This document shows positions 932 through 58,510 of a stretch of DNA of 64,000 bases, piece by piece. The stretch is from sequence record KP869111. The stretch is one strand, 5' to 3'. The DNA comes from Escherichia coli O157 typing phage 13. The notes under the pieces were generated by a model that saw nothing but the letters and a program-made list of their open reading frames with translations, was not told the DNA's origin and did not search any database. Each line of letters begins with the position of its first letter. Position 1 is the stretch's first letter. The position numbers and the translations under genes were made by a program.

Positions 932-2032
932 TTACGCTGTGAAGATTTTATCCCACATCGCAACAACTGCATCTCGGTTATACTTCTTCCATACTGCTTC
1001 AGCACGTTTAACTCGAGCTTCGTATGTGTCAGTGAATTCTAATACAGCTTTTGTGTAAAGCGCAACTACTTCTTTCTTAGGAGTAGAGGAATCAATTTCT
1101 ACACGCACAGTATCTGGGTCGTATTCGAATGTCGCATGAGGATAATCCTTAAAAACTAACTGGATTACAGGGACACCTTTAGAGATGGCTTCAATAGAAC
1201 TATTCTCTACCGTACCTGTGTCAGGACACGTATTAATAAGTGCTTTAGCTGTTTTAAGACGTTCCATAATTTCACTGTGTGGAGCATCAATAATAACAGG
1301 ATATTTAGCTGGTGGTGCCCATTTACTAGGACAGTATCCTGCACCATTTTCGCCTAGTGCTTTAATCGCTTCAAGAGCAACATCAGTACGACGCATTTTA
1401 GTGTCATAACGTTGTGCACTAATAATCAGATCAGTCGCCGGAAGAACTTCAGGTTTCTCATTCAAACAAATAACCGGATAATCTTCGGCTTCAAACAACG
1501 GATTTGCTCGCCAATAATCATAATCAATTTTGTCAGTCAGACCTGAAGTCATATAACAATATTTACGTTCAAATTCACGGAAGGCTTTAGTAGGAGCATA
1601 ACTCTTACCACCATTCTTATGAATTTGAATAGTCTGGTCCCAAATTTGAACAATGCCACGAGATACCGGTTCAAACGGTGTTGCCATAAAATTCTTATGA
1701 ACTTTAGAGAGACCTGCGTCTTTAATTGCCTGAACGGTTAGTTTAGTCGGTTCCATAGTAACAACGAAATCGTATTCATGGATGCCGGCTAGTTCAACAA
1801 TCTTACGAGCCATAGTATAACTCATACCTAGACTGAATTTAGTCAGATGACCAACAGGATGATGATTAACCTTCCAATCACCAAATGTGTCATTATCAAA
1901 ACCAATATAATCAATATCGGCACCGATAGAAACTAAATATTTCAACACATTTAAATGTACTGCTTCAAGACCACCTTGTACACGGTCAGGATTAAATGGG
2001 ACTGCACGAGATGGGATAAACATAACTTTCAT
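932..2032 (-). CDS. GT-B fold glycosyltransferase, candidate DNA 5-hmC glycosyl (arabinosyl-type) transferase
   Basis: 366 aa; C-terminal E-x4-E-A-I-S-K-G-V-P-V-I motif typical of GT4/GT-B donor-binding domain; ATG with AAGG SD; sits between gene 39 and rIIA where T4 has gene 60/mobA. Confidence 0.55.
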   Translation of the reverse strand: MKVMFIPSRAVPFNPDRVQGGLEAVHLNVLKYLVSIGADIDYIGFDNDTFGDWKVNHHPVGHLTKFSLGMSYTMARKIVELAGIHEYDFVVTMEPTKLTVQAIKDAGLSKVHKNFMATPFEPVSRGIVQIWDQTIQIHKNGGKSYAPTKAFREFERKYCYMTSGLTDKIDYDYWRANPLFEAEDYPVICLNEKPEVLPATDLIISAQRYDTKMRRTDVALEAIKALGENGAGYCPSKWAPPAKYPVIIDAPHSEIMERLKTAKALINTCPDTGTVENSSIEAISKGVPVIQLVFKDYPHATFEYDPDTVRVEIDSSTPKKEVVALYTKAVLEFTDTYEARVKRAEAVWKKYNRDAVVAMWDKIFTA

Positions 2033-14090: not shown

Positions 14091-14612
14091 TTAATAACCT
14101 CGGTCTTGACGAGCAAAGTTTTCAGCATTCTTCAGATAATACAGTTTAAAGATTTCTTCAGCAGAAAGACCCAGACCTTGGAACATGTTCAGAACGAAGT
14201 GCAGAATATCAATCATTTCGAATTTAATTTCGAGCTGGTCTTCGGGAGACAGTTCATCAATACGACGATTACGATATTCAGCATGTTGTGCTTTCCATGG
14301 CTTCCACACAGAGCTGGCAGCTTTTTCACCGTTGGACATACCACCAAGTGAAGTCAGCAGTTCACGGAATTCATCATCAATATAATCTTTCTGATTACGC
14401 AGCCAATCAACAACATCGCCAGCAGTAGCCAATTCATCAGGATGTTTGTTATGTTCAGGCTTGTCATTTGCCAGACGAACCTGTAAAGATTTCTGCATAT
14501 CAAGCATTACCTGCAGTGGGTCTTTATCTTCGTGAATCAGAGCATTAAAATAAGCTTCTTCTGCTTTATCAACACCAGAAATAAGTTGTGAACATTCGTT
14601 AAAGTGTGCCAT
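14091..14612 (-). CDS. 56: dCTP pyrophosphatase (dCTPase/dUTPase)
   Basis: MAHFNECSQLISGVDKAE... matches T4 gp56; start at ATG with AAAGGA SD (track ORF extends 5 codons upstream). Confidence 0.85.
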   Translation of the reverse strand: MAHFNECSQLISGVDKAEEAYFNALIHEDKDPLQVMLDMQKSLQVRLANDKPEHNKHPDELATAGDVVDWLRNQKDYIDDEFRELLTSLGGMSNGEKAASSVWKPWKAQHAEYRNRRIDELSPEDQLEIKFEMIDILHFVLNMFQGLGLSAEEIFKLYYLKNAENFARQDRGY

Positions 14613-17651: not shown

Positions 17652-17900
17652 TTATTCTTTTTCGCGAATAATAATTACTTGTTGAGGCTGCTGAGCCGAT
17701 TTCTTTTCGGCAACGATAGACCAAATTAAAGTTCCAATCCAACCAATCATCGTCCAGTTAAAGAGTAAAGATACAAAGAAGATTGCTGTTGTGCTTTTTG
17801 TGCCACGAATAAGTGCGATTACCCAAGGCAACATGTAAATGATGATTGAACCAATACCTGCGATTAAAACTGCTACTGAACTAGCTACGAATAATTCCAT
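17652..17900 (-). CDS. small inner-membrane protein (2 predicted TM helices)
   Basis: 82 aa; two long hydrophobic stretches; own GTTTAC promoter at 17929-17958. Confidence 0.5.
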   Translation of the reverse strand: MELFVASSVAVLIAGIGSIIIYMLPWVIALIRGTKSTTAIFFVSLLFNWTMIGWIGTLIWSIVAEKKSAQQPQQVIIIREKE

Positions 17901-17928
17901 GTTAATTTCCTCTTGATTTGTTATGTTT

Positions 17929-17958
17929 ATAATATCTTGTTTTAACTTTGGCGTAAAC
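17929..17958 (-). promoter_or_regulatory. early-type promoter GTTTAC-N18-TATTAT
   Basis: seen on minus strand upstream of 17652..17900. Confidence 0.45.
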
Positions 17959-17961
17959 CAA

Positions 17962-18330
17962 TTAATTAAATTTGTTTAAACGTTCAATACACTGGACGTA
18001 GTTATTCGCGATTTGTTTCTGGGTAGGCTCTTTACCAGTTGTTTCAACATAACGAATGAATGCGATTTCAGTAGCCTGTAGACAATGTTCTTTAACGCGT
18101 TGTTCTTTTGACAATGCTACAGTATCAGAGTCACGATAACGTTGAGCATGGGCATCAGCTTGAATCATTCGATTACCTACAGTAACCGGGTCTTCCACTT
18201 CAACTTTAGGTTGGTCGTACTGTTTAACATTCGGATTGTAAATCAATTGGCCAACGTTATTAGGGATAAAGCCATGGGCACCACATCCGGTTAATCCAAA
18301 TACCATTGCTAAAGCGATTAATTTTTTCAT
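17962..18330 (-). CDS. putative lipoprotein
   Basis: 122 aa; signal peptide with lipobox LTGC; AGAGGAAA SD; GTTTAC promoter upstream. Confidence 0.55.
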   Translation of the reverse strand: MKKLIALAMVFGLTGCGAHGFIPNNVGQLIYNPNVKQYDQPKVEVEDPVTVGNRMIQADAHAQRYRDSDTVALSKEQRVKEHCLQATEIAFIRYVETTGKEPTQKQIANNYVQCIERLNKFN

Positions 18331-22479: not shown

Positions 22480-23028
22480 TTAACGAGCCCATTTGATGAT
22501 TTCTGTAATCAAATCATTACGTTCGCTTGCATTAAATCCTATAACTTTGTTAGCACCATCATGATTAAGTAATTGATACGTTTGGATTTTGTTATGAATT
22601 GCAAACTCTTCAAAATGTGAAATGACTGTATTAAAACCGAATGAAGACAAAGTGATAAGGTCGTCTTCAAAACTTTCAGTCATTTCGTTACGTGTTAAAA
22701 TAATTGTGAACACATCATGGTTTTGGCAAAGACGAACATAATCCTGTTCATAAACGTCAAGAACCGAGTCCGCATCTTGTCGAATACGTCCATAAACCCA
22801 GTTACTAATATATCCACGGTCTAACAGATAAATCTTAGTAGGGTCTAAATAATTCAACATCGTTTCGAAACAGCCAACTTCATTTCGAGACTTAACATCG
22901 AAACGTCCATCAACTGTTCGTTTAGGGAAATCAATCTTTACATATCTTTCACTAATTTCCATTATGTCATTAATGAAAGTTGTTTTACCAGCATTATCCG
23001 GGCCATCTACTAAAATAATTTTAGCCAT
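22480..23028 (-). CDS. P-loop kinase (NMP-kinase / thymidylate-kinase-like fold), substrate unknown
   Basis: 182 aa; Walker A LVDGPDNAGKTTF; GAGGAA SD; no T4 counterpart recognised at this position. Confidence 0.5.
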   Translation of the reverse strand: MAKIILVDGPDNAGKTTFINDIMEISERYVKIDFPKRTVDGRFDVKSRNEVGCFETMLNYLDPTKIYLLDRGYISNWVYGRIRQDADSVLDVYEQDYVRLCQNHDVFTIILTRNEMTESFEDDLITLSSFGFNTVISHFEEFAIHNKIQTYQLLNHDGANKVIGFNASERNDLITEIIKWAR

Positions 23029-23029
23029 T

Positions 23030-23929
23030 TTATTCCTCGATTACGACATCTTCATATTTAGGTATATTATACGGTGAAGAAATTAAAGCATTAAAGTAGA
23101 TGAACTCACCAAGACCTGGATGAAATACTTCTTCAGGATTTTCGAAATATTGAATCTTCGGACGTCCTTTAAGAATTTGATAGTACTCAGTTTTAGTTGG
23201 TTTAAAAATTCGAATCAACGCTTCTTCAGGATACTTATTTCTGTCGAAGCTATTATTTGGATCGGTTATATAAAGCGGTTGACCTAATTGAATTGCGCAT
23301 TCAACAACTTGTTCAAAACGATAGCATGGGTCACTAATTCGAAATGGATGAAAAATACCATCTAGATGAATAGGAGCCAAATCACCTACAAGACGCTGCA
23401 TGATGGAAGGACGTATAACTTTCTGCGTTACGATAATCTTATTACCATCTGCACCTGCGTTAACCAGCACTTCTTTTTGACGTTCATTCAACACAGTAGT
23501 TTGAAGTGAACGATTAACCGACAACATATCAGTTTTTAAGAATTCGTCAATATAAAAACGTGGTTTATTAGGGTCTGCAGTGATATTGAAATTGAATTCC
23601 ACATCAAAAGCGCCGTCATATCCAGTGATATCTGTGATTAAAAAATCACAATCATAATAAGCAATTAATGAATCAACAACAAATTCATTTTCAGACCAGA
23701 AATATTTACGAGTGTTATACGCGTTATCTTTATACCATAATGGAACAAACTTAAATTCTGGAAAAAGACGTTCGCATTCTTTAATATCAGATGCATTACG
23801 TGGATATGTAATCACATCACCCGGATTAGCACGGTGCAAATGAAGTTGGAAGTTGCCATCCTTAAGGATAGCATACTGTCCAGTTTCATAAGACCGCATA
23901 CTCAAGATTGGTACGCGGAAAATAGCCAT
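23030..23929 (-). CDS. hypothetical protein, possible second glycosyltransferase (beta-gt position)
   Basis: 299 aa; C-terminal EQVVECAIQLGQPLYI loosely resembles GT-B EA..G.P(V/L) motif; TAATG overlap with upstream gene. Confidence 0.45.
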   Translation of the reverse strand: MAIFRVPILSMRSYETGQYAILKDGNFQLHLHRANPGDVITYPRNASDIKECERLFPEFKFVPLWYKDNAYNTRKYFWSENEFVVDSLIAYYDCDFLITDITGYDGAFDVEFNFNITADPNKPRFYIDEFLKTDMLSVNRSLQTTVLNERQKEVLVNAGADGNKIIVTQKVIRPSIMQRLVGDLAPIHLDGIFHPFRISDPCYRFEQVVECAIQLGQPLYITDPNNSFDRNKYPEEALIRIFKPTKTEYYQILKGRPKIQYFENPEEVFHPGLGEFIYFNALISSPYNIPKYEDVVIEE

Positions 23930-24645
23930 TAGTCAAGGAATCCTTTAACATAATCAAAATCACGTTCAAACACATGGGCACTTACCATGGTATGAGTATA
24001 ATCACCAACTTCTACCCCACATTCGTTAGCGATATAATGAAGTAATTTTCCTTGGAGATAAAAATCCAACTGCATAACAACAGCACAGTTCTGAGAACGC
24101 ATATGACAGTGGGTATAAAGCTTACCATCACGAATATAATAAGTCACTGAGTCAGTACATGGATATTCAAGCGTTTCGTCCGAATCAAGCAAAGCCTGAT
24201 CAGAACTTTCTAGAATTTGGAACACAACTCTTCGAGAGTTAGGCTTCTCTTTAAGTTCTTTTAGAAGAGCTGGTAATTGGGCCGCAATGCGAGGACCATA
24301 GAAAGTGTTGAAGTTCGCCGGCAAAACATCTGATTTTGGTTTAGAAATAAATTTAGCGACATTAGGATATGCCTTAAACGCTTCTTCTGCGTTGGTACCA
24401 CCAGAAATCATAAACTTCCAGAAGTCTTCGGCATATTCATAAGAGATGCGGTTAATACGTGGGTCGGTCATTTTGAATGATGATGGAGTGTCAACAACTA
24501 CTGTCATAGACCCAATTTCATTACAACGTCCAATACGAGAATCAGTTACGAATTCCGGGTTTTCTAAAATTTCACGATTGACTGCTTTAAATGCGGTTTG
24601 AAAATCTGCGGCTTTGATATATTTCATTGTGTTATGTTTTCCCAT
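23929..24645 (-). CDS. pyrimidine hydroxymethylase of thymidylate synthase superfamily (dCMP hydroxymethylase, gene 42-like but divergent)
   Basis: 238 aa; NSRRVVFQI, YPCTDSVTYYIRDGKL (catalytic Cys), MRSQNC, SAHVFERDF align to T4 gp42 / TS motifs; GAGGT SD. Confidence 0.6.
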   Translation of the reverse strand: MGKHNTMKYIKAADFQTAFKAVNREILENPEFVTDSRIGRCNEIGSMTVVVDTPSSFKMTDPRINRISYEYAEDFWKFMISGGTNAEEAFKAYPNVAKFISKPKSDVLPANFNTFYGPRIAAQLPALLKELKEKPNSRRVVFQILESSDQALLDSDETLEYPCTDSVTYYIRDGKLYTHCHMRSQNCAVVMQLDFYLQGKLLHYIANECGVEVGDYTHTMVSAHVFERDFDYVKGFLD

Positions 24646-24687
24646 GTTTACCTCAATACAATTTATTATATACTCAATTCGTAAAGC

Positions 24688-24927
24688 TTATTTGAATTTC
24701 TTGACAATGTTGATATAACGTAAAGCTTCAGCATCGATACTTCCAAGAACACTATGAAGAAATGCATCAGCGTAGTATTCCAATTGAACAGGTTCTTTAA
24801 TCACTTTAGCCGCTTTAGTTTCAAACAGGCCCATCAGGGCCTTTTTAAGAATTTGTTCGTTGCTGTTAATTTTCATAGTCAAAATCTCTTCATTAAGTTG
24901 GTGGTTAAAAGTTTTTCTAGAAATCAT
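24688..24927 (-). CDS. small acidic protein (weak carrier-protein-like LGSID motif)
   Basis: 79-aa ORF; ATGA overlap with upstream gene. Confidence 0.4.
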   Translation of the reverse strand: MISRKTFNHQLNEEILTMKINSNEQILKKALMGLFETKAAKVIKEPVQLEYYADAFLHSVLGSIDAEALRYINIVKKFK

Positions 24928-26084
24928 TCCGGGTACCTCAAAGCGTCATCAGAGTTAGTTATATCAATAATAGATATAGAGTTTTCTGCTAACCCGTTTT
25001 TAGATAATTGACGTTTATAATATCTTTCACAATATGTACACGTCGTCCCGCAGATTTCATTAGCACAATCGAAATCTGGATGTCTGAACCACCTTTTTTC
25101 TAAAAAGCCATCTAACAAAGAGGTTTCAATATTTACTGTATGTGAAAACTCAGTTTCGTTTTCAAGAGTGAAAATAGTCTCTAAAGGCTTCCACAGTTCT
25201 AACAAATTACCTTCAAACTTTTCAGAAGCGTATGCTTCAAGAACTTTCAAAATGTAGTCTGTGCTACCTGTACGTCCTGAAACTTTGAATTGAGTGATAC
25301 CAATATCATTATAAAGTTTCAAATCTTGAGGACGAACAAAACGAGTTCTCAACCAGTTAAATGGGTCTGTATCACGAGCTTTAATACAGTGCTGCATAGG
25401 ATATCCGTTTAAGGATTTAGCATCATCAGCTGTAACATCAGTACTATGGAAAATATAGCAAGAGTCACGATAGCTACAATGTGTTGTATACCCTTTACCA
25501 GCATTAGAACAGAACTCATTTACAAGAACTTCAAATATTATATTGTTCTTATTGCAAAACTCTGCTGCACGCTTCAGGAAAGAAACTGAACGGTTCTTAT
25601 GAATTCCACAGCAGACCTTTTTGATATTATACTGGTCATGCAAGTATTTGATTTGAGTTACAGCATCGACATGTAGAATTGTTGAAACTTCAATCTCAAT
25701 GTCTTTATTGACTTCACGAACAATTTCCATAACAACAGGGTTAGCGATAGTAATACGCCATACGCCTATTGACCAAAGATACTGAACATAATCCTGAATA
25801 GCTTTCTTCTTCCACCCAACTAGTTCTCTTTTTGAACCAGGATTTATCGTGTTGAGTGTATAGTTAAAGCAAATACCTAATTCGTTACAACGTTTAACGT
25901 AATCTTCTAACATCTTTTTGTCAACGTCAGGAAGCCTAAAATCAGGTCTGGCTGCTACAAAAGCCATTTCTCTTGTAGAGCCGTATACTTCGTTTATCAA
26001 GCTATTAGGATAAGTTTTATTGAGCTCTACGATTTTATCAAGAAGAGCTAAATCAAAATTCGTTCCAATTTTAAAAGTATTCAT
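24924..26084 (-). CDS. Cys-rich protein of uncertain family (possible Fe-S enzyme; peptidase-U32-like or radical-SAM-like features)
   Basis: Track M1 is GTG; ATG at MNTFKIG; Cys clusters EFCSNAGKGYTTHCSYRDSC and C-terminal CANEICGTTCTYC (CxxxCxYC spacing). Confidence 0.45.
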   Translation of the reverse strand: MNTFKIGTNFDLALLDKIVELNKTYPNSLINEVYGSTREMAFVAARPDFRLPDVDKKMLEDYVKRCNELGICFNYTLNTINPGSKRELVGWKKKAIQDYVQYLWSIGVWRITIANPVVMEIVREVNKDIEIEVSTILHVDAVTQIKYLHDQYNIKKVCCGIHKNRSVSFLKRAAEFCNKNNIIFEVLVNEFCSNAGKGYTTHCSYRDSCYIFHSTDVTADDAKSLNGYPMQHCIKARDTDPFNWLRTRFVRPQDLKLYNDIGITQFKVSGRTGSTDYILKVLEAYASEKFEGNLLELWKPLETIFTLENETEFSHTVNIETSLLDGFLEKRWFRHPDFDCANEICGTTCTYCERYYKRQLSKNGLAENSISIIDITNSDDALRYPE

Positions 26085-26140
26085 TTTTTTGCATCTCACG
26101 TTAATTGATGCGATGGTTTTTGCAGGTCTTACTTAAATTA

Positions 26141-26527
26141 TTATAGATTCGGTTTATATGATTTAAATGTTTCGAATTCGCCTTTATTCATAAGAGCTTT
26201 GAATTCGTCAGGACGCATAGCTTTGTCGTCGATAATCCAATCATATACTGGTTTATGTGTTAGCAAATTATGGTACTTCAAACCAATGTTTTCCAAGTTC
26301 TGAATCAGACTTGGGAGAATGTCAATTGCTATACGACCAGGACCTACTGACTTCATACCGCGAGCAGTGTAAAGCGTTATGGTATGCCCTGCATCATACA
26401 GGGCATTAATAGCAGTCACCATTTCGACGTCTGGTTTGAAGTTCACGTAATCACGATTGTTATTCCACTCTGTTATACAATCATCGACATCAAAACAAAG
26501 ATTAAGCATGTTTTCTACACGGTGCAT
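26141..26527 (-). CDS. HAD-superfamily-like small phosphatase
   Basis: FDVDDC (motif I-like DxD), conserved K, IIDD (motif IV-like); start at ATG overlapping upstream stop. Confidence 0.5.
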   Translation of the reverse strand: MHRVENMLNLCFDVDDCITEWNNNRDYVNFKPDVEMVTAINALYDAGHTITLYTARGMKSVGPGRIAIDILPSLIQNLENIGLKYHNLLTHKPVYDWIIDDKAMRPDEFKALMNKGEFETFKSYKPNL

Positions 26528-28212
26528 TAGATTCGTTCCCATTGATGAGTGATATCGCCACCGATTGGACGATAAGAAACACCAGTTTCTTTATCAGTTA
26601 GTACCCATTTACCAGGATTTTTTGTAATCAGAGTAGCCGTTACAGGTTCTGCTACGTCATAACTAATAGAGCCGTCCTGAAGTACACGGCCCATGTTACG
26701 TAATTGCTTAGTCAGAAGTTCCATACCTTTATAATATGCGGCTACCGCTTTAAGTGGATTATTCTTGAAATAACCACCTAATGCAATCCAGATAATTGCT
26801 ACAGCCAAATGATGATACTCGTTAAACGAACTCATCTTTCCATATTTGTAAACTAATGGATTGATGTTAATAGTCACATTACAAGTTGTTTCGTCAATAG
26901 TAAACTGTCCCCAGGTCGGATTAGCGTTGAATTCATCATAACCTGAAACAGCATAAAGCACTTTAGCTTCATCATACAATTTTGGCCCGTAAATCTTGGT
27001 TTCGCCAAAATATCCACGAGGGTCGATAAACTTGACTTCGCCGTTATCAGTAATCATAGTATTACTGAAGTTCGGGTCACCGTGAATAACAGAGTACTGT
27101 CCCTGAGAACGGGTATGATAACGAATAAGATGTTCTAAAGCTTGCTTCAGCATTGGCTTCAGACGTCCAATCTTAGTGTAGTTCACGTGTGTGATTTTAC
27201 CAAATGAATCAATCAATGGCTGAATGCTTTCACAACGATCAATAACTTTCGTATAGAACTCTTTAGTGAAATCACGGCGAACAGTTTCAGGACTTACAAA
27301 ATAAGTGTCTGTGCTGAATTTCAGTGCATCTAAAATTGCATCAACAATTTGTGGACGAGCAAGACTTGATTTGGATTTAATATATTCAAATGCTGGCTTA
27401 CCTTTAATACGTTCCATTTCAAAATTATTTTCATTTACCGAAACTAACTGAGGAACTGAATCTGATTTCACTTTCAAATACCATGAAATCTCATCTTTTT
27501 GAAGAGCTCGACCTTGTTCGGTTAACGCGAATTTAGTTACAGTTTCTTCGCCAATTTCAACTGCATTAAAACTACGATTAAGTTCACGAACTTCATGAGC
27601 TTTTTCAAGTTTAGGCATATCACCTAAATCAATTAGATTCATAAGCTCTGATTTATTGAATGCACTGCCGTAAAGGAATTCTACGAAATCACGTCCTTTG
27701 CAGTATTCATGAATTTCCTCATCAGTAGAACCCATGTAGAATTCCCAGTCTTTGAACTGATAAATTCCTACAACATTACCGCCTGTTGAACCTACGTTAG
27801 TGATATTTTCACCATCGAAATTATATCGACATTCATCACCCTTAACATAGATTGCGTTAACATTCCAAGACCATGAACCAAAATCAGGAATAATATCACA
27901 CCAGTTAACAATTACGTTATGGCCATCTAAATCTTTGTATAATTTAGCAAGAGCATAAGCAGAACCATACGCTTCATCAACTGTACGAATAGTCACATTG
28001 AACCCTTCTTGCTCGCAATAAGCTCGAACAGTTTCAGCAAATTTTGAATGAACTACTACAATAATTTCATCTGCGCCAAGGTCAGAATAAATTGTATACA
28101 AATTGCTCAGAATAGTGTCTTGTTTATAGTTAACAAGAACTTTTGGAATATGATGCGTTATTGGATACAAACGAGTTGCCAGTCCAGCACCAAGAATAAC
28201 AGCTTTTTTCAT
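26527..28212 (-). CDS. bifunctional sugar-1-phosphate nucleotidyltransferase (N-term) / small-molecule kinase of APH-choline-kinase fold (C-term)
   Basis: 561 aa; N-terminal ILGAGLATRLYPIT (RmlA/GlmU-like); C-terminal HGDPNFSNTMI...IDP (Brenner kinase motif); GAGGA SD. Confidence 0.65.
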   Translation of the reverse strand: MKKAVILGAGLATRLYPITHHIPKVLVNYKQDTILSNLYTIYSDLGADEIIVVVHSKFAETVRAYCEQEGFNVTIRTVDEAYGSAYALAKLYKDLDGHNVIVNWCDIIPDFGSWSWNVNAIYVKGDECRYNFDGENITNVGSTGGNVVGIYQFKDWEFYMGSTDEEIHEYCKGRDFVEFLYGSAFNKSELMNLIDLGDMPKLEKAHEVRELNRSFNAVEIGEETVTKFALTEQGRALQKDEISWYLKVKSDSVPQLVSVNENNFEMERIKGKPAFEYIKSKSSLARPQIVDAILDALKFSTDTYFVSPETVRRDFTKEFYTKVIDRCESIQPLIDSFGKITHVNYTKIGRLKPMLKQALEHLIRYHTRSQGQYSVIHGDPNFSNTMITDNGEVKFIDPRGYFGETKIYGPKLYDEAKVLYAVSGYDEFNANPTWGQFTIDETTCNVTININPLVYKYGKMSSFNEYHHLAVAIIWIALGGYFKNNPLKAVAAYYKGMELLTKQLRNMGRVLQDGSISYDVAEPVTATLITKNPGKWVLTDKETGVSYRPIGGDITHQWERI

Positions 28213-28253
28213 GTTGTGGTCCTCATTGGTAAGTAGGTGTATTGTACACTATT

Positions 28254-28397
28254 CTAGTTAAAGCATTCATACTTTGCTTGTAGTCCAATCATAATCCATC
28301 CAATTACAAGTGTTGGAATCATTACTGGAGCCGTTAAGCTCCAGTAGATAGTCATGACAAGCATCAATAGTAAAAGTCCTATTGTTATTGCTTTCAT
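28254..28397 (-). CDS. small hydrophobic membrane protein (47 aa)
   Basis: Own translation MKAITIGLLLLMLVMTIYW...; ATG overlaps SIS-gene stop (ATGA); not in ORF track. Confidence 0.4.
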   Translation of the reverse strand: MKAITIGLLLLMLVMTIYWSLTAPVMIPTLVIGWIMIGLQAKYECFN

Positions 28398-29029
28398 TGT
28401 TCGCCTCGTAACATGGCACCTAGTGCACCGCCTGGATGGAACTTAAGAAAGTCATTAGAGGTAAATCCACGTTCAGACGAAAGGTTGATAGCAAACGTAT
28501 CGATAAGCGCTAACAACAATGTAGTGGACATAGTCGGAGCCAGAGAATTCTCATCAACCTCTACCGCGATGCCTGTACAGAAAGAGTAATCAAAAAGGGC
28601 TTCATTTTCTTGCGGAATGTCTGGGTTACAATGCAACAGAATCTGTTTGACATTTGGACGAATCATTTTAAGATGCTTAGCCACGCCTATCATTTCTTCA
28701 GTCTTACCAGAACGACTAATATGAATCAACACATCATTAGGCGCAATGAATCCTGCATCACCGTGAGAATAATGCCCAGTGTTCAAGTACATACTCGGGA
28801 TACCGAGTGAAGCAAATGTCTCAGAAGCTTTAGTTGCAATATTAGCATTCTTACCAACACCTGTAATAATTACTCGGCTTTCATAATTACTAAGTCCAGG
28901 GCGTCGAAGAGTTTCTAGAATAGCATTATAACGAGCAGGGTTTTGACTAATTACTTTGGCCATAGCGGCCAAAGAAGAAGCTTGTTTTATGATTGCGTCA
29001 ATAGCGATAGTAATAGGAGTAGTTTTCAT
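28394..29029 (-). CDS. SIS-domain sugar-phosphate isomerase (arabinose-5-phosphate isomerase KpsF/GutQ-like, no CBS domains)
   Basis: 211 aa; ITGVGKNANIATK...HGDAGFIAPNDVLIHISRSGKTEE...APTMSTT...HPGGALG match the API/SIS signature. Confidence 0.7.
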   Translation of the reverse strand: MKTTPITIAIDAIIKQASSLAAMAKVISQNPARYNAILETLRRPGLSNYESRVIITGVGKNANIATKASETFASLGIPSMYLNTGHYSHGDAGFIAPNDVLIHISRSGKTEEMIGVAKHLKMIRPNVKQILLHCNPDIPQENEALFDYSFCTGIAVEVDENSLAPTMSTTLLLALIDTFAINLSSERGFTSNDFLKFHPGGALGAMLRGEQ

Positions 29030-43291: not shown

Positions 43292-43402
43292 ATTTACCCT
43301 TAATTAATTAACCAAGCATTGATAAGCAAACCATATTGCGAATAAAATTCTGGACCAAAATGAAAAATCATATCATTTATAGTATCCATAATGTAGTTCA
43401 AT

Positions 43403-43873
43403 TTAATCATGTTTCCACACCCCATTGGTATTCGACCAAAGTCGCTGATTATCTGATCCTCGCCACAGTTTTTTGGTCGGAAGATTTTTCTCATACTTCC
43501 CATCAATAATAACATCAACATATTTAAGCATTTCTAGTTGTTTAATATCTTCAAACTTATATCCTGTCCACAACCAAATGCTTTTATTGGGATAAATATT
43601 TTTTACTGTTTGAACAATGCAATGAACAACATCTCTATTATCAGGATAGAGAGGGTCGCCTCCGGTTATAGTCAATCCTTCTATATAATCATTATTCAAA
43701 CATTCAATTAATTGTTCTAGTGTCTCTCCAGTGAATGGAGCACCATTTCTAGCGTTCCATGTTGATTTATTATAACACCCTTCACATTTATGCAAACAAC
43801 CTGTAACGAAAAGAACGACCCTGCAACCAGGGCCATTCACAAAATCGCAAGGATAAAATCTATCATAATTCAT
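43403..43873 (-). CDS. nrdG: anaerobic ribonucleotide reductase activating protein (radical SAM)
   Basis: 156 aa; CLHKCEGC radical-SAM cluster motif; matches T4 NrdG. Confidence 0.85.
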   Translation of the reverse strand: MNYDRFYPCDFVNGPGCRVVLFVTGCLHKCEGCYNKSTWNARNGAPFTGETLEQLIECLNNDYIEGLTITGGDPLYPDNRDVVHCIVQTVKNIYPNKSIWLWTGYKFEDIKQLEMLKYVDVIIDGKYEKNLPTKKLWRGSDNQRLWSNTNGVWKHD

Positions 43874-45687
43874 TGGTGTTTAACCCTATGCATGATTTCT
43901 TTATTTTTACCGAGATTAAATCCGCGTTCGTTCGGATTTCCCAAATAACCGCATGTTCTTCTTATGGTGTTCATCTTTTTAGGATCAGTTTCTCCGCAAA
44001 CTGAACAAACAAATCCGTTTTCAGTAGGAGTCATTTCATGGGTACTTCCACATGTAAAACATTTATCTACTGGCATATTAACACCAAAATAATCTAAATG
44101 TTGTGCAGCATAATCCCAGACAGCCTCAAGTCCCTTTAAATTGTTTTTCATATCTGGAAGTTCAACATAAGAAATGTGACCACCTGTCGCAATGAAATGA
44201 TATGGCGCTTCACGAGAAATCTTTTCAAACGGAGTAATATTTTCTTCTACTGAAACATGGAAACTATTAGTGTACCAGCCTTTATCTGTAACATCTTTTA
44301 CACTTCCATATTTTTCTGTGTCTAGTTTACAGAAACGATAACAAAGGTTTTCAGCAGGTGTAGAATACAAGCTAAAAGCAAACCCAGTTCTTTCAGTCCA
44401 TTGTTTAAGAAGAGCATTCATTTTAGTTAAAATTTCTTGTCCAATATCACGTCCGACAAGAATATTCAATTCGTGGATACCAATGTATCCTAAAGACACT
44501 GAACTTCTACCGTTTTTAAATAACTCAATTATGTCGTCATCAGGTTTAAGACGAACCCCGAATGCACCTTCTTGGTAAAGAATAGGAGCAACAGTCGCTT
44601 TAACTCCTTTTAAGGAACTAATTCTACACATCAAGGCTTCAAAACACAGATCCATACGTTCATTGAATAATTCAACAAATTTCTGTTCATTGAACTGTGT
44701 TCCAATATAAGAATCTAATGCGATACGAGGAAGATTCAGTGTTACAACACCGAGATTATTACGTCCATCAAGAATTTCATTACCAGTCGAATCTTTCCAT
44801 ACGCTCAAGAAACTACGGCAACCCATTGGAGAAACTGGAACTGAAGAACCAGTAATAGCTTTATTATTCTTAGCTGAAATAATATCAGGATACATTCTTT
44901 TGCTTGCGCACTCTAGAGCAAGCTGCTTAATATCATAGTTCGGATCGTCTTTATAAAGATTAACACCTTCTTCAACGAACATAACAAGCTTAGGGAAAAT
45001 AGGAGTTATTCCATCACGACCAAGACCTTTAATGCGGTTTTTAAGAATTGCCTTCTGAATCATTCGTTCAGTCCAATCGGCCCCCGTACCAAATGTAATT
45101 GTTACAAAAGGTGTTTGTCCGTTTGAACTAAAGAGAGTATTTACTTCATATTCATAAGCTTGGAACGCGTCATAGACATCTTTTTCTGTTTTGGATTGAG
45201 CATAATTCAACGCATCAGCGATTTGCCATTTTTCCGCATCTTCAACATGTTTAGCGTATGTGCGTTTAACATAAGGAGAAAGAACTTTATCGACATTTGC
45301 AAATGTAGTTCCGCCATACTGATGTGAAGCAACTTGTGCAGTAATTTGTGCCATAATTGCAGTAGCAACACCAATCGATTTAGGCGTTTCAATTTGAGCA
45401 TTGCCTAATTTAAATCCGTTCTCAAGCATCCCCTTTAAATCGACTAAACAACAATTAGTAAACGGAAGAGCAGGAGAATAATCAATATCATGCATGTGGA
45501 TAATTCCACTTTCATGCGCATTCATAATAAAAGACGGGACCATATTTTTGGCAATGTGCTTAGACACAATACCAGCCATAAGGTCCCGTTGAGTTGGAAA
45601 AACACGAGAATCTTTATTAGCATTCTCGTTTAAAAGGTCTTTATTAGTTTTATGAATTAATCCTTCAATTTCTTTTTCAATTTTCAT
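43870..45687 (-). CDS. nrdD: anaerobic ribonucleoside-triphosphate reductase (glycyl radical enzyme), uninterrupted
   Basis: 605 aa; C-terminal RRTCGYLG glycyl radical motif and Cys zinc site; no intron. Confidence 0.9.
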   Translation of the reverse strand: MKIEKEIEGLIHKTNKDLLNENANKDSRVFPTQRDLMAGIVSKHIAKNMVPSFIMNAHESGIIHMHDIDYSPALPFTNCCLVDLKGMLENGFKLGNAQIETPKSIGVATAIMAQITAQVASHQYGGTTFANVDKVLSPYVKRTYAKHVEDAEKWQIADALNYAQSKTEKDVYDAFQAYEYEVNTLFSSNGQTPFVTITFGTGADWTERMIQKAILKNRIKGLGRDGITPIFPKLVMFVEEGVNLYKDDPNYDIKQLALECASKRMYPDIISAKNNKAITGSSVPVSPMGCRSFLSVWKDSTGNEILDGRNNLGVVTLNLPRIALDSYIGTQFNEQKFVELFNERMDLCFEALMCRISSLKGVKATVAPILYQEGAFGVRLKPDDDIIELFKNGRSSVSLGYIGIHELNILVGRDIGQEILTKMNALLKQWTERTGFAFSLYSTPAENLCYRFCKLDTEKYGSVKDVTDKGWYTNSFHVSVEENITPFEKISREAPYHFIATGGHISYVELPDMKNNLKGLEAVWDYAAQHLDYFGVNMPVDKCFTCGSTHEMTPTENGFVCSVCGETDPKKMNTIRRTCGYLGNPNERGFNLGKNKEIMHRVKHQ

Positions 45688-58083: not shown

Positions 58084-58307
58084 TTAGGTTCACCTTCTTT
58101 AACGAAATCTGGGTAAGGGTAAAATCCTGAGTAAAACCCTTCACCTTTATGATTGCTACAACCTTTGTTCGAACAGTAACACCAATAATCAAAATCACAA
58201 GCCATTTCGTCATTGCATAAAGCAAAAACTACAGGCCATTCGCATTTTTCGCATTTAGCACCTGTAAGAATTTTTGTTTGACTCATAACCATGTCACCTT
58301 TAAGCAA
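58080..58307 (-). CDS. small Cys-rich protein
   Basis: 75 aa with 8 Cys (putative zinc binding). Confidence 0.4.
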   Translation of the reverse strand: MLKGDMVMSQTKILTGAKCEKCEWPVVFALCNDEMACDFDYWCYCSNKGCSNHKGEGFYSGFYPYPDFVKEGEPK

Positions 58308-58510
58308 TATTCTTCTACATGTTGTTTACGGCCTTTCTTATCAATAAAGGTATATTCAACGAATGTTCCGATGTAGTCTTTATCTACATCATGTGGACTA
58401 TTAATTGGACATTTGGTACGACAAATGCGTTCCCATTGACGAATAATTACTGCCTTATTCTTTGGGTCATATGGATGTGGATAATGTATATTCATAATAA
58501 CGGTTCCCAA
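58283..58510 (-). CDS. hypothetical small protein
   Basis: 75-aa ORF. Confidence 0.4.
   Translation of the reverse strand: MGTVIMNIHYPHPYDPKNKAVIIRQWERICRTKCPINSPHDVDKDYIGTFVEYTFIDKKGRKQHVEEYCLKVTWL

Follow-up and report, generated by a model that had tools for sequence, protein, structure and literature searches.

Phage RB69 offers the closest described counterpart of the gene analysed in this work. When RB69 gp48 was expressed together with the phage deoxynucleoside monophosphate (dNMP) kinase, 5-hydroxy-2'-deoxycytidine (5-hydroxy-dC) was found in the DNA of E. coli; the oxygen of the product came from 18O2 and flavin mononucleotide (FMN) co-purified with the enzyme, while T4 gp42, run in parallel, produced 5-hydroxymethyl-2'-deoxycytidine (5hmdC) (PMC13326640). 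In the same paper, Lee et al. (NAR 2026) reported that the DNA of RB69 and of the Acinetobacter phage DLP3 contains arabinosylated 5-hydroxycytosine, in which the sugar is ether-linked directly to C5 (PMC13326640). The homologue of phage HY126 has been solved with flavin and its reaction reconstituted, according to the account of He et al. (Nat Chem Biol 2026) given in PMC13326640, and the corresponding PDB titles read 'Monooxygenase dependent on riboflavin with dCMP and FAD' (9iqc) and 'phage HY126 dCMP hydroxylase-AfhB' with its substrate deoxycytidine monophosphate (dCMP; 9iqu). A paper in AEM (2026) gives the same account for another Mosigvirus and revises the arabinosyl-hydroxymethylcytosine assignment made for RB69 in 2018. 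In the present work, a stretch of 64,000 nucleotides from Escherichia coli O157 typing phage 13 (KP869111), hereafter the window, was analysed around an open reading frame (ORF) at 23929-24645 whose product resembles thymidylate synthase (TS). We propose, with a probability of roughly 0.93, that this ORF encodes a 5-hydroxy-2'-deoxycytidylate synthase (dCMP 5-hydroxylase), a flavin- and O2-dependent enzyme with the TS fold that is orthologous to RB69 gp48 and HY126 AfhB. The enzyme type is already known from the experiments published in 2025-26, and nothing about the enzyme itself is new here.

An 8-kb probe from the window was 100% identical to E. coli O157 typing phages 3 and 6 (KP869101, KP869104) and 98.3% identical to RB69; the window phage is thus an RB69-like Mosigvirus of the Tevenvirinae. 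At the protein level the identity to RB69 gp48 reaches 99.2%, with two substitutions in 238 residues (N85D and V107A), both conservative and neither of them at a signature position. A phmmer search of the PDB returned 9iqc, 9ir2 and 9iqu with E values between 1e-157 and 1e-161 and about 98% identity to 9iqc, and an AlphaFold2 (AF2) model built with 39 homologues (predicted local distance difference test, pLDDT, of 87) was matched by Foldseek to the same 9iqc entry with a template modelling (TM) score of 0.94 and 98% identity, and also to 9iqu. The next structural matches of the model were the mildiomycin enzyme MilA (TM 0.85) and then canonical TSs. The Pfam family Thymidylat_synt (PF00303) covers residues 122-235 only (E 2.3e-15, 56.9 bits). 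The name 'hydroxymethylase', used for this protein in the original prediction, is therefore wrong, since the product shown for RB69 gp48 carries a 5-OH group formed with flavin and O2 and not a 5-CH2OH group formed with methylenetetrahydrofolate (methylene-THF) (PMC13326640). That prediction had also raised a different substrate or product specificity; the product does differ, being 5-hydroxy-dCMP in the 99.2%-identical RB69 protein, but the substrate is still dCMP, as indicated by the Asp at ThyA position 177.

Some points weigh against this assignment. The evidence comes from orthologues, and the window protein differs by two residues from RB69 gp48 and by about five from the crystallised HY126 protein. 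Moreover, the cofactor reports are inconsistent, with FMN in one case (PMC13326640) and riboflavin/flavin adenine dinucleotide (FAD) in the PDB titles. Finally, the 2018 report on RB69 read the base as arabinosyl-hydroxymethylcytosine (PMC6024577), a reading superseded by two later studies.

The residues of the active site were compared by aligning the window protein with E. coli ThyA, whose numbering is used for signature positions, and with T4 gp42. Signature residues and pairwise and profile scores were used for the assignment, a tree of the TS superfamily being unreliable at 25-30% identity and with few references. The window protein keeps R126, R127, C146 (its own C163), R166, S167 and H207, and has an Asp at position 177 (N177D, window D194), the determinant for dCMP, as well as a Glu at position 143 (L143E, window E160). 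At position 169 it carries Asn (D169N, window N186, in the motif MRSQN), where T4 gp42 and ThyA keep the folate-binding Asp; this replacement was proposed and validated as diagnostic of 5-hydroxy-dCMP synthases (PMC13326640). The folate-contacting Trp80, present in both ThyA and T4 gp42, is replaced by Ala, and the Gly at position 173 of these two proteins is replaced by Val (G173V). The same signature was found in all of the 120 best database homologues (53-100% identity), and relatives from IMG/VR down to 45% identity keep the pattern LE[YF]PC...MRS[QE]N...LD, while a relative at 30% reverts to RSQD. Certain motifs of the N-terminal half, such as L108-P-x-N-F-N-T-F-Y-G-P-R119 and G82-G-T84, are invariant in this clade only, and we regard them as candidates for the new cofactor site. 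Taken as a whole, the protein combines the TS fold, Asn169, Cys146, Asp177, an acidic residue 143, orthologue-level identity and a genomic context with dCTPase, glycosyltransferase and nucleotide-sugar genes, which are the marks of the hydroxylase clade.

These data also bear on the possibility that the ORF encodes a true but fast-evolving orthologue of T4 gp42, which would still produce 5-hydroxymethyl-dCMP from methylene-THF, as most records and the 2018 RB69 paper assumed. The gene lies between uvsX and gene 43, the slot of T4 gene 42; its product has the catalytic Cys, N177D, the acidic residue 143 and Thr147 in common with gp42, belongs with it to PHROG 160, and is called 'dCMP hydroxymethylase' in several records. 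Nevertheless, the catalytic Cys and the dCMP-recognition residue of the gp42 type (Asp179), both present in the window protein, are common to gp42 and the hydroxylase clade and therefore do not discriminate between them, whereas the Asp169 and Trp80 of the gp42 type and an orthologue-level similarity to gp42 are lacking. The replacements Asp169 to Asn and Trp80 to Ala, both at folate contacts, occur in every member of the family; the crystal structure contains flavin; and the 99%-identical RB69 gp48 makes 5-hydroxy-dC with oxygen from 18O2, under conditions in which T4 gp42 gave 5hmdC. Nor is the family fast-evolving, as the enzymes of Mosigvirus and an Acinetobacter phage share 69% identity, compared with 59-60% for gp41 and gp43. 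Thus, a gp42 orthologue with the T4 activity is very improbable, and the dCMP 5-hydroxylase remains the reading that we follow.

Another product is implied by the GenBank label 'thyA', that is, a second thymidylate synthase converting dUMP to dTMP. The Pfam Thymidylat_synt match would agree with it, and the records of typing phages 3 and 6 do say 'thyA: thymidylate synthase'. However, the window protein has Asp, not Asn, at ThyA position 177, it falls far below all cut-offs of the NCBIfam TS equivalogs (for example 68 vs 174 and 50 vs 108 bits), and a genuine td gene lies next to frd elsewhere in the genome, so that this option deserves hardly any weight. That td, which is outside the window, is the only other TS-superfamily gene of the phage and is canonical (45% identity to E. 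coli ThyA; Pfam, 326 bits). Genes for the gp1 dNMP kinase and the gp56 dCTPase are also present in the phage genome, while neither a T4-type gp42 nor the alpha- and beta-glucosyltransferases (alpha-gt, beta-gt) were found in the window or in the whole phage genome (KP869101). It follows from the assignment as a hydroxylase that the labels 'thyA', 'thymidylate synthase', 'dCMP hydroxymethylase' and 'deoxycytidylate 5-hydroxymethyltransferase' are functionally wrong for the hydroxylase clade. The GenBank text of RB69ORF048c reads 'similar to dCMP hydroxymethylase, td', and PHROG 160, named 'thymidylate synthase', lumps the hydroxylase clade with T4 gp42.

The divergence from T4 was quantified by comparing all ORFs of the window with positions 1-100 kb of T4 by tblastn. 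The TS-like ORF showed 24.8% identity, among the lowest values for ORFs with a T4 match, and BLASTP aligned 218 aa of its product with T4 gp42 at 25% identity and 13% gaps. The corresponding tblastn values were 78% for Dda, 85% for gp41, 83% for gp40, 68% for UvsX, 62% for gp43, 74% for gp62, 78% for gp44, 79% for gp45, 83% for gp46, 76% for gp47, 91% for gp55, 90% for gp49 and 70% for gp56 (T4 gene numbers). The original prediction, which had described a gp42 homologue far more diverged than its neighbours, is borne out by this range of 62-91% for replication and recombination genes, as is its statement that Dda, UvsX and gp49 are close to their T4 counterparts; the pairwise alignment that it had proposed as a check gave no identity to gp42 comparable to that of the core genes. 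The catalytic Cys (YPC163T) and the RS(N/Q) motif (R183-S184-Q-N186) that it had recognised are indeed there. Its claim of little N-terminal resemblance to gp42 was correct in that residues 1-120 are 25% identical in a global alignment, but the weakness is not limited to this half, since residues 121-238 reach only 28%. The divergence is about uniform along the length of the protein, and the C-terminal half looks more familiar because of short catalytic motifs only.

Stretches of near-identity to T4 were also noticed in the window: nrdD (43870-45687) is 99% identical over 425 aa, tk.3 (58283-58495) is 100% identical, and a stretch at 43300-43521, next to nrdG, is 96% identical, the surrounding genes being typically at 60-85%. 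Such patches suggest that there was recent recombination with phages of the T4 type, in which the homing endonucleases located at these sites in T4 (mobC, I-TevII) may have had a part.

With regard to the origin of the locus, it has to be considered whether a foreign modification island was recently gained by horizontal transfer and took the place of an ancestral T4-type gene 42. The block at 22480-29029 has no T4 counterpart except for the 25%-identical TS homologue, and its sugar genes resemble bacterial capsule and lipopolysaccharide (LPS) genes. T4 carries segA, beta-gt, 42, imm and imm.1 between uvsX and gene 43, the site occupied here by the TS-like gene; the block replaces all of these, with imm and imm.1 located elsewhere in the window phage. 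The latter two genes, which flank gene 42 in T4, were found at 17652-18330, adjoining sp/61.4, with 65% and 32% identity to T4. Their presence there indicates that the neighbourhood of gene 42 was rearranged and not simply replaced. On the other hand, the guanine-plus-cytosine (GC) content of the block, 0.34-0.39, is like that of the rest of the window and reveals no compositional anomaly; the enzyme and a similar cluster occur across Tevenvirinae, Twarogvirinae and, more distantly, Pootjesviridae; and between genera the enzyme has diverged to the same extent as core replication genes, or to a lesser one. For instance, it shares 69% identity with its counterpart in Acinetobacter phage Konradin, a Lazarusvirus of a different subfamily, the values for gp41 and gp43 in the same pair being 59-60%. 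In addition, the distance between the enzyme and T4 gp42 (25% identity) is about the same as that of either enzyme from E. coli ThyA (25-30%). Because of the ordinary composition, the higher conservation of the enzyme than of gp41 and gp43, and this similar distance to gp42 and ThyA, the TS-like gene looks like an old and well-conserved sister lineage in the gene-42 slot, not a rapidly diverging gp42, and a recent arrival of the island seems unlikely. The earlier suggestion of an acquisition together with the surrounding island thus stands insofar as the gene lies inside a 6.7-kb pathway block without T4 counterpart, while a recent transfer is contradicted by the GC content and by the 69% vs 59-60% identities.

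The features of the pathway are listed in Table 1. The genes of the 6.7-kb block (22480-29029) are 97.5-100% identical to those of RB69.

Table 1. Genes of the proposed cytosine modification pathway and their positions in the window.
Feature	Position	Strand	Length	Evidence and remarks
TS-like ORF	23929-24645	-	238 aa	Counterpart of RB69ORF048c (gp48)
P-loop nucleotide kinase, thymidylate kinase-like (RB69 gp45)	22480-23028	-		99.5% identity to ORF045c; weak N-terminal match to TIGR00041
Putative DNA arabinosyltransferase 1 (AraT1; RB69 gp46:47)	23030-23929	-	299 aa	Assignment as in PMC13326640 Table 1
Small protein gp49, function unassigned	24688-24927	-	79 aa	PHROG 8601; start overlaps stop of the U32 gene
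U32-family protein (RB69 gp50)	24924-26099	-		Pfam Peptidase_U32
HAD-type sugar phosphatase (RB69 gp51; HY126 AfhF analogue)	26141-26542	-		TIGR01689, E 2e-13; 97.7% identity to ORF051c
Bifunctional sugar kinase/nucleotidyltransferase (RB69 gp52:53; HY126 AfhE analogue)	26527-28212	-	561 aa	
D-arabinose-5-phosphate isomerase (RB69 gp55)	28394-29029	-		KpsF/GutQ, E 2e-32; KdsD, E 7e-31; 100% identity to ORF055c
gp56 dCTPase/dUTPase	14091-14612	-		70% identity to T4 gp56 over 173 aa; supplies dCMP and keeps dCTP out of DNA
Putative DNA arabinosyltransferase 2 (AraT2; RB69 ORF003c/gp3)	932-2032	-		Between rIIA.1 and the topoisomerase gene; 99.7% identity to ORF003c

In the proposed pathway, dCMP would be supplied by the gp56 dCTPase and hydroxylated at C5 by the TS-like enzyme, an activity shown on orthologues. 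The phage dNMP kinase, whose acceptance of the product was likewise shown on orthologues, and the host NDP kinase would then provide 5-hydroxy-dCTP, and the gp43 polymerase would insert it in place of dC, a full replacement of C having been shown on orthologues. The neighbouring genes would deliver uridine diphosphate (UDP)-arabinofuranose, from which the two glycosyltransferases may add one or two arabinoses to the 5-OH group on DNA through an ether bond, and the arabinosylated DNA would resist many restriction enzymes. As for the chemistry, since the Cys, the arginines that bind phosphate and the Asp that binds the pyrimidine are kept and the folate contacts are lost, Cys163 would, as in TS and gp42, attach to dCMP at C6. 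The C5 nucleophile so generated would attack a flavin C4a-hydroperoxide in place of the folate iminium, and elimination of the thiol would restore the ring.

Several of these roles have been ascribed to the RB69 proteins or their analogues. A structural assignment of RB69 gp45 is available (PMC13326640 Table 1), and a kinase of this type possibly phosphorylates the modified nucleotide. The gp51-type phosphatase has a role in UDP-arabinose synthesis and the gp52:53-type enzyme makes UDP-arabinofuranose (PMC13326640); the window ORF of the latter type matches Pfam NTP_transferase in its N-terminal part and has kinase-like matches at residues 354-409. The AraT1 ORF had no match in Pfam, and its start codon overlaps the stop codon of the gp48 gene (TAATG). 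In most of 51 loci from IMG/VR, the gene directly after the TS-like one is AraT1-like. The assignment of AraT2 rests on PMC6024577 and PMC13326640, and the protein is 43% identical to a glycosyltransferase in the cluster of Acinetobacter phage Konradin. The genes of gp48 and gp49 are separated by 42 nt in mosigviruses, including the window. The window has one intact ORF each for gp46:47 and gp52:53 (299 and 561 aa), two genes that are split in the RB69 record. RB69 ORF047c and ORF046c correspond to residues 1-181 and 184-299 of AraT1 (99-100% identity), and ORF053c and ORF052c to residues 1-218 and 219-561 of the kinase/nucleotidyltransferase. These intact ORFs support the published view that the splits in RB69 are sequencing errors (PMC13326640). 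A variant of the cluster was seen in the IMG/VR copies of E. coli phages JS98, VR5 and their relatives, in which the hydroxylase is 80% identical and keeps the N169 signature. Their loci are without the U32, chorismate mutase and arabinose-5-phosphate isomerase genes, and their nucleotidyltransferase/kinase is only 43% identical; these phages probably attach a different sugar to 5-hydroxycytosine.

The association of the U32 gene with chorismate mutase and 3-deoxy-D-arabino-heptulosonate 7-phosphate (DAHP) synthase genes may be the only new element found in this work. The gp50 protein matches Pfam Peptidase_U32 with 42.2 bits (cut-off 22.4), a homologue in Serratia phage LC53 does so with 44.5 bits, and the only NCBIfam match of gp50 is a weak one to UbiU. 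The U32 family includes RlhA (ho5C2501 of 23S rRNA), TrhP (ho5U34 of tRNA) and UbiU/UbiV, all O2-independent, and a requirement for prephenate is documented in the family, which forms with O2-dependent enzymes the dual pairs TrhO/TrhP and UbiIHF/UbiUV (PMC6599085, PMC5727448, PMC10990095); for UbiU/V prephenate is the shown oxygen donor (PMC10990095). In PMC13326640, gp50 is called a 'sugar or heterocycle reductase' and RNA pathways are cited, with no mention of U32. We hypothesize, as a tentative reading that we hold to be possible but less probable than its contrary, that gp50 is an O2-independent, prephenate-dependent cytosine-5 hydroxylase, providing a second route to 5-hydroxycytosine parallel to gp48.

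The gene context is what suggests such a route. The U32 gene was found in 221 phage genomes, with hosts among Enterobacterales or Shewanella in the names listed, and it is absent from phages of Acinetobacter, Pseudomonas and Rhizobium. Of the 51 IMG/VR loci, 16 contain it; in all of these it stands directly upstream of the TS-like gene, and whether it is present does not depend on the arabinose-5-phosphate isomerase gene. The Acinetobacter phage cluster is without a U32 gene, and DLP3 still makes tri-arabinosyl-5-hydroxycytosine (PMC13326640), so the arabinose chemistry does not need U32. Between the U32 and TS-like genes of Serratia phage LC53 (6158-6502) lies a type II chorismate mutase gene (CM_2, 44.6 bits vs 27, E 1.7e-11). 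A chorismate mutase gene in this slot was found in 12 of the 16 IMG/VR loci that have U32 and in 54 phage records, whose hosts belong to Serratia, Erwinia, Klebsiella, Yersinia, Enterobacter, Edwardsiella, Pectobacterium, Proteus, Providencia and Shewanella; the gene is absent from mosigviruses, including the window, and from the phage genome KP869101. This genome does carry, outside the window, a class I DAHP synthase gene (KP869101 16211-17203; Pfam, 252 bits), for which no match was found in T4 positions 1-100 kb. DAHP synthase is the first enzyme of the shikimate pathway. It was found in 212 phage records, which are distributed over genera much as those of the U32 gene are. Furthermore, nrdD and nrdG in the window equip the phage to grow anaerobically, and under such conditions an O2-dependent hydroxylase could not work. 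The adjacency of U32 to the TS-like gene, its uncoupling from the isomerase, the linkage to chorismate mutase, the profile of DAHP synthase and the presence of nrdD/nrdG together suggest a route fed by prephenate and independent of O2, in which chorismate mutase (in related genera) and DAHP synthase (in the window phage) would boost the supply of prephenate. The gp49 protein was considered as a diverged chorismate mutase and rejected, since it matches no Pfam family, CM_2 included, and does not resemble the chorismate mutase of LC53, and since Yersinia phages carry a gp49-like gene together with a chorismate mutase.

Other observations speak against a hydroxylase function of gp50. In E. coli phages of the JS98/VR5 type the hydroxylase occurs but the U32 gene is absent, which also makes the correlation between U32 and the oxygen lifestyle of the host imperfect. 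The Cys motif is atypical: gp50 has Cys197, 208, 214 and 238 plus an extra C-terminal CX4CX3CX2C, and the first and third Cys of the UbiU-type set correspond in the alignment to C169 and C193 of UbiU, with Gly in the second place and Cys208 five residues on. Its 'GYPMQHC238' resembles the 'GYPTLC232' of UbiU. A pairwise BLAST with E. coli RlhA, for which the proposed likeness is the C5 hydroxylation of cytosine as base chemistry, was not significant, and a sequence search of the PDB retrieved no solved relatives of gp50.

The TS-like gene illustrates how a folate-dependent C1-transferase scaffold was turned into a flavin monooxygenase, and its divergence from gp42 is the sequence trace of this switch. 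A group of T4-like phages thereby has arabinosyl-5-hydroxycytosine in place of glucosyl-hydroxymethylcytosine, a base change that affects the outcome of restriction, CRISPR and type IV defence and matters for phage annotation and for the use of phages in therapy. For the window enzyme, the value of the analysis is corrective, as its GenBank names are wrong. If the proposed role of gp50 is true, these gut phages, which carry NrdD/NrdG, could make 5-hydroxycytosine DNA without oxygen, the TS-fold hydroxylase being the aerobic half of the system; the association of U32 with chorismate mutase and DAHP synthase might then show how an obligately O2-requiring step is handled in anaerobic infection.

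Among known systems, the window protein is closest to RB69 gp48 and HY126 AfhB (PDB 9IQC, 9IR2, 9IQU), with which it shares length, signature residues, flanking genes and predicted fold. With T4 gp42 (EC 2.1.2.8) it has in common the TS fold, the Asp at ThyA position 177, the catalytic Cys, the acidic residue 143, a short C-terminus and the genomic slot, but the two proteins are only 25% identical, the window protein differs by Asp169 to Asn, Trp80 to Ala and Gly173 to Val, and gp42 uses methylene-THF to form a 5-CH2OH group whereas RB69 gp48 uses flavin and O2 to form a 5-OH group (PMC13326640). ThyA and td resemble it in the RS motif, the Cys and the arginines that bind phosphate, with 30% identity over the C-terminal 115 residues of the window protein; unlike ThyA, the latter carries N177D, D169N and W80A, is without the small domain and the C-terminal tail, and is 17% identical in its N-terminal half. 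Outside the family, the closest solved structure is that of MilA, the cytidine monophosphate (CMP) 5-hydroxymethylase of mildiomycin biosynthesis (PDB 5B6D, 5JNH), which matches over the full length with a TM of 0.83-0.85 and 22-23% identity, but depends on folate, has the ribonucleotide CMP as its substrate and yields a hydroxymethyl product.

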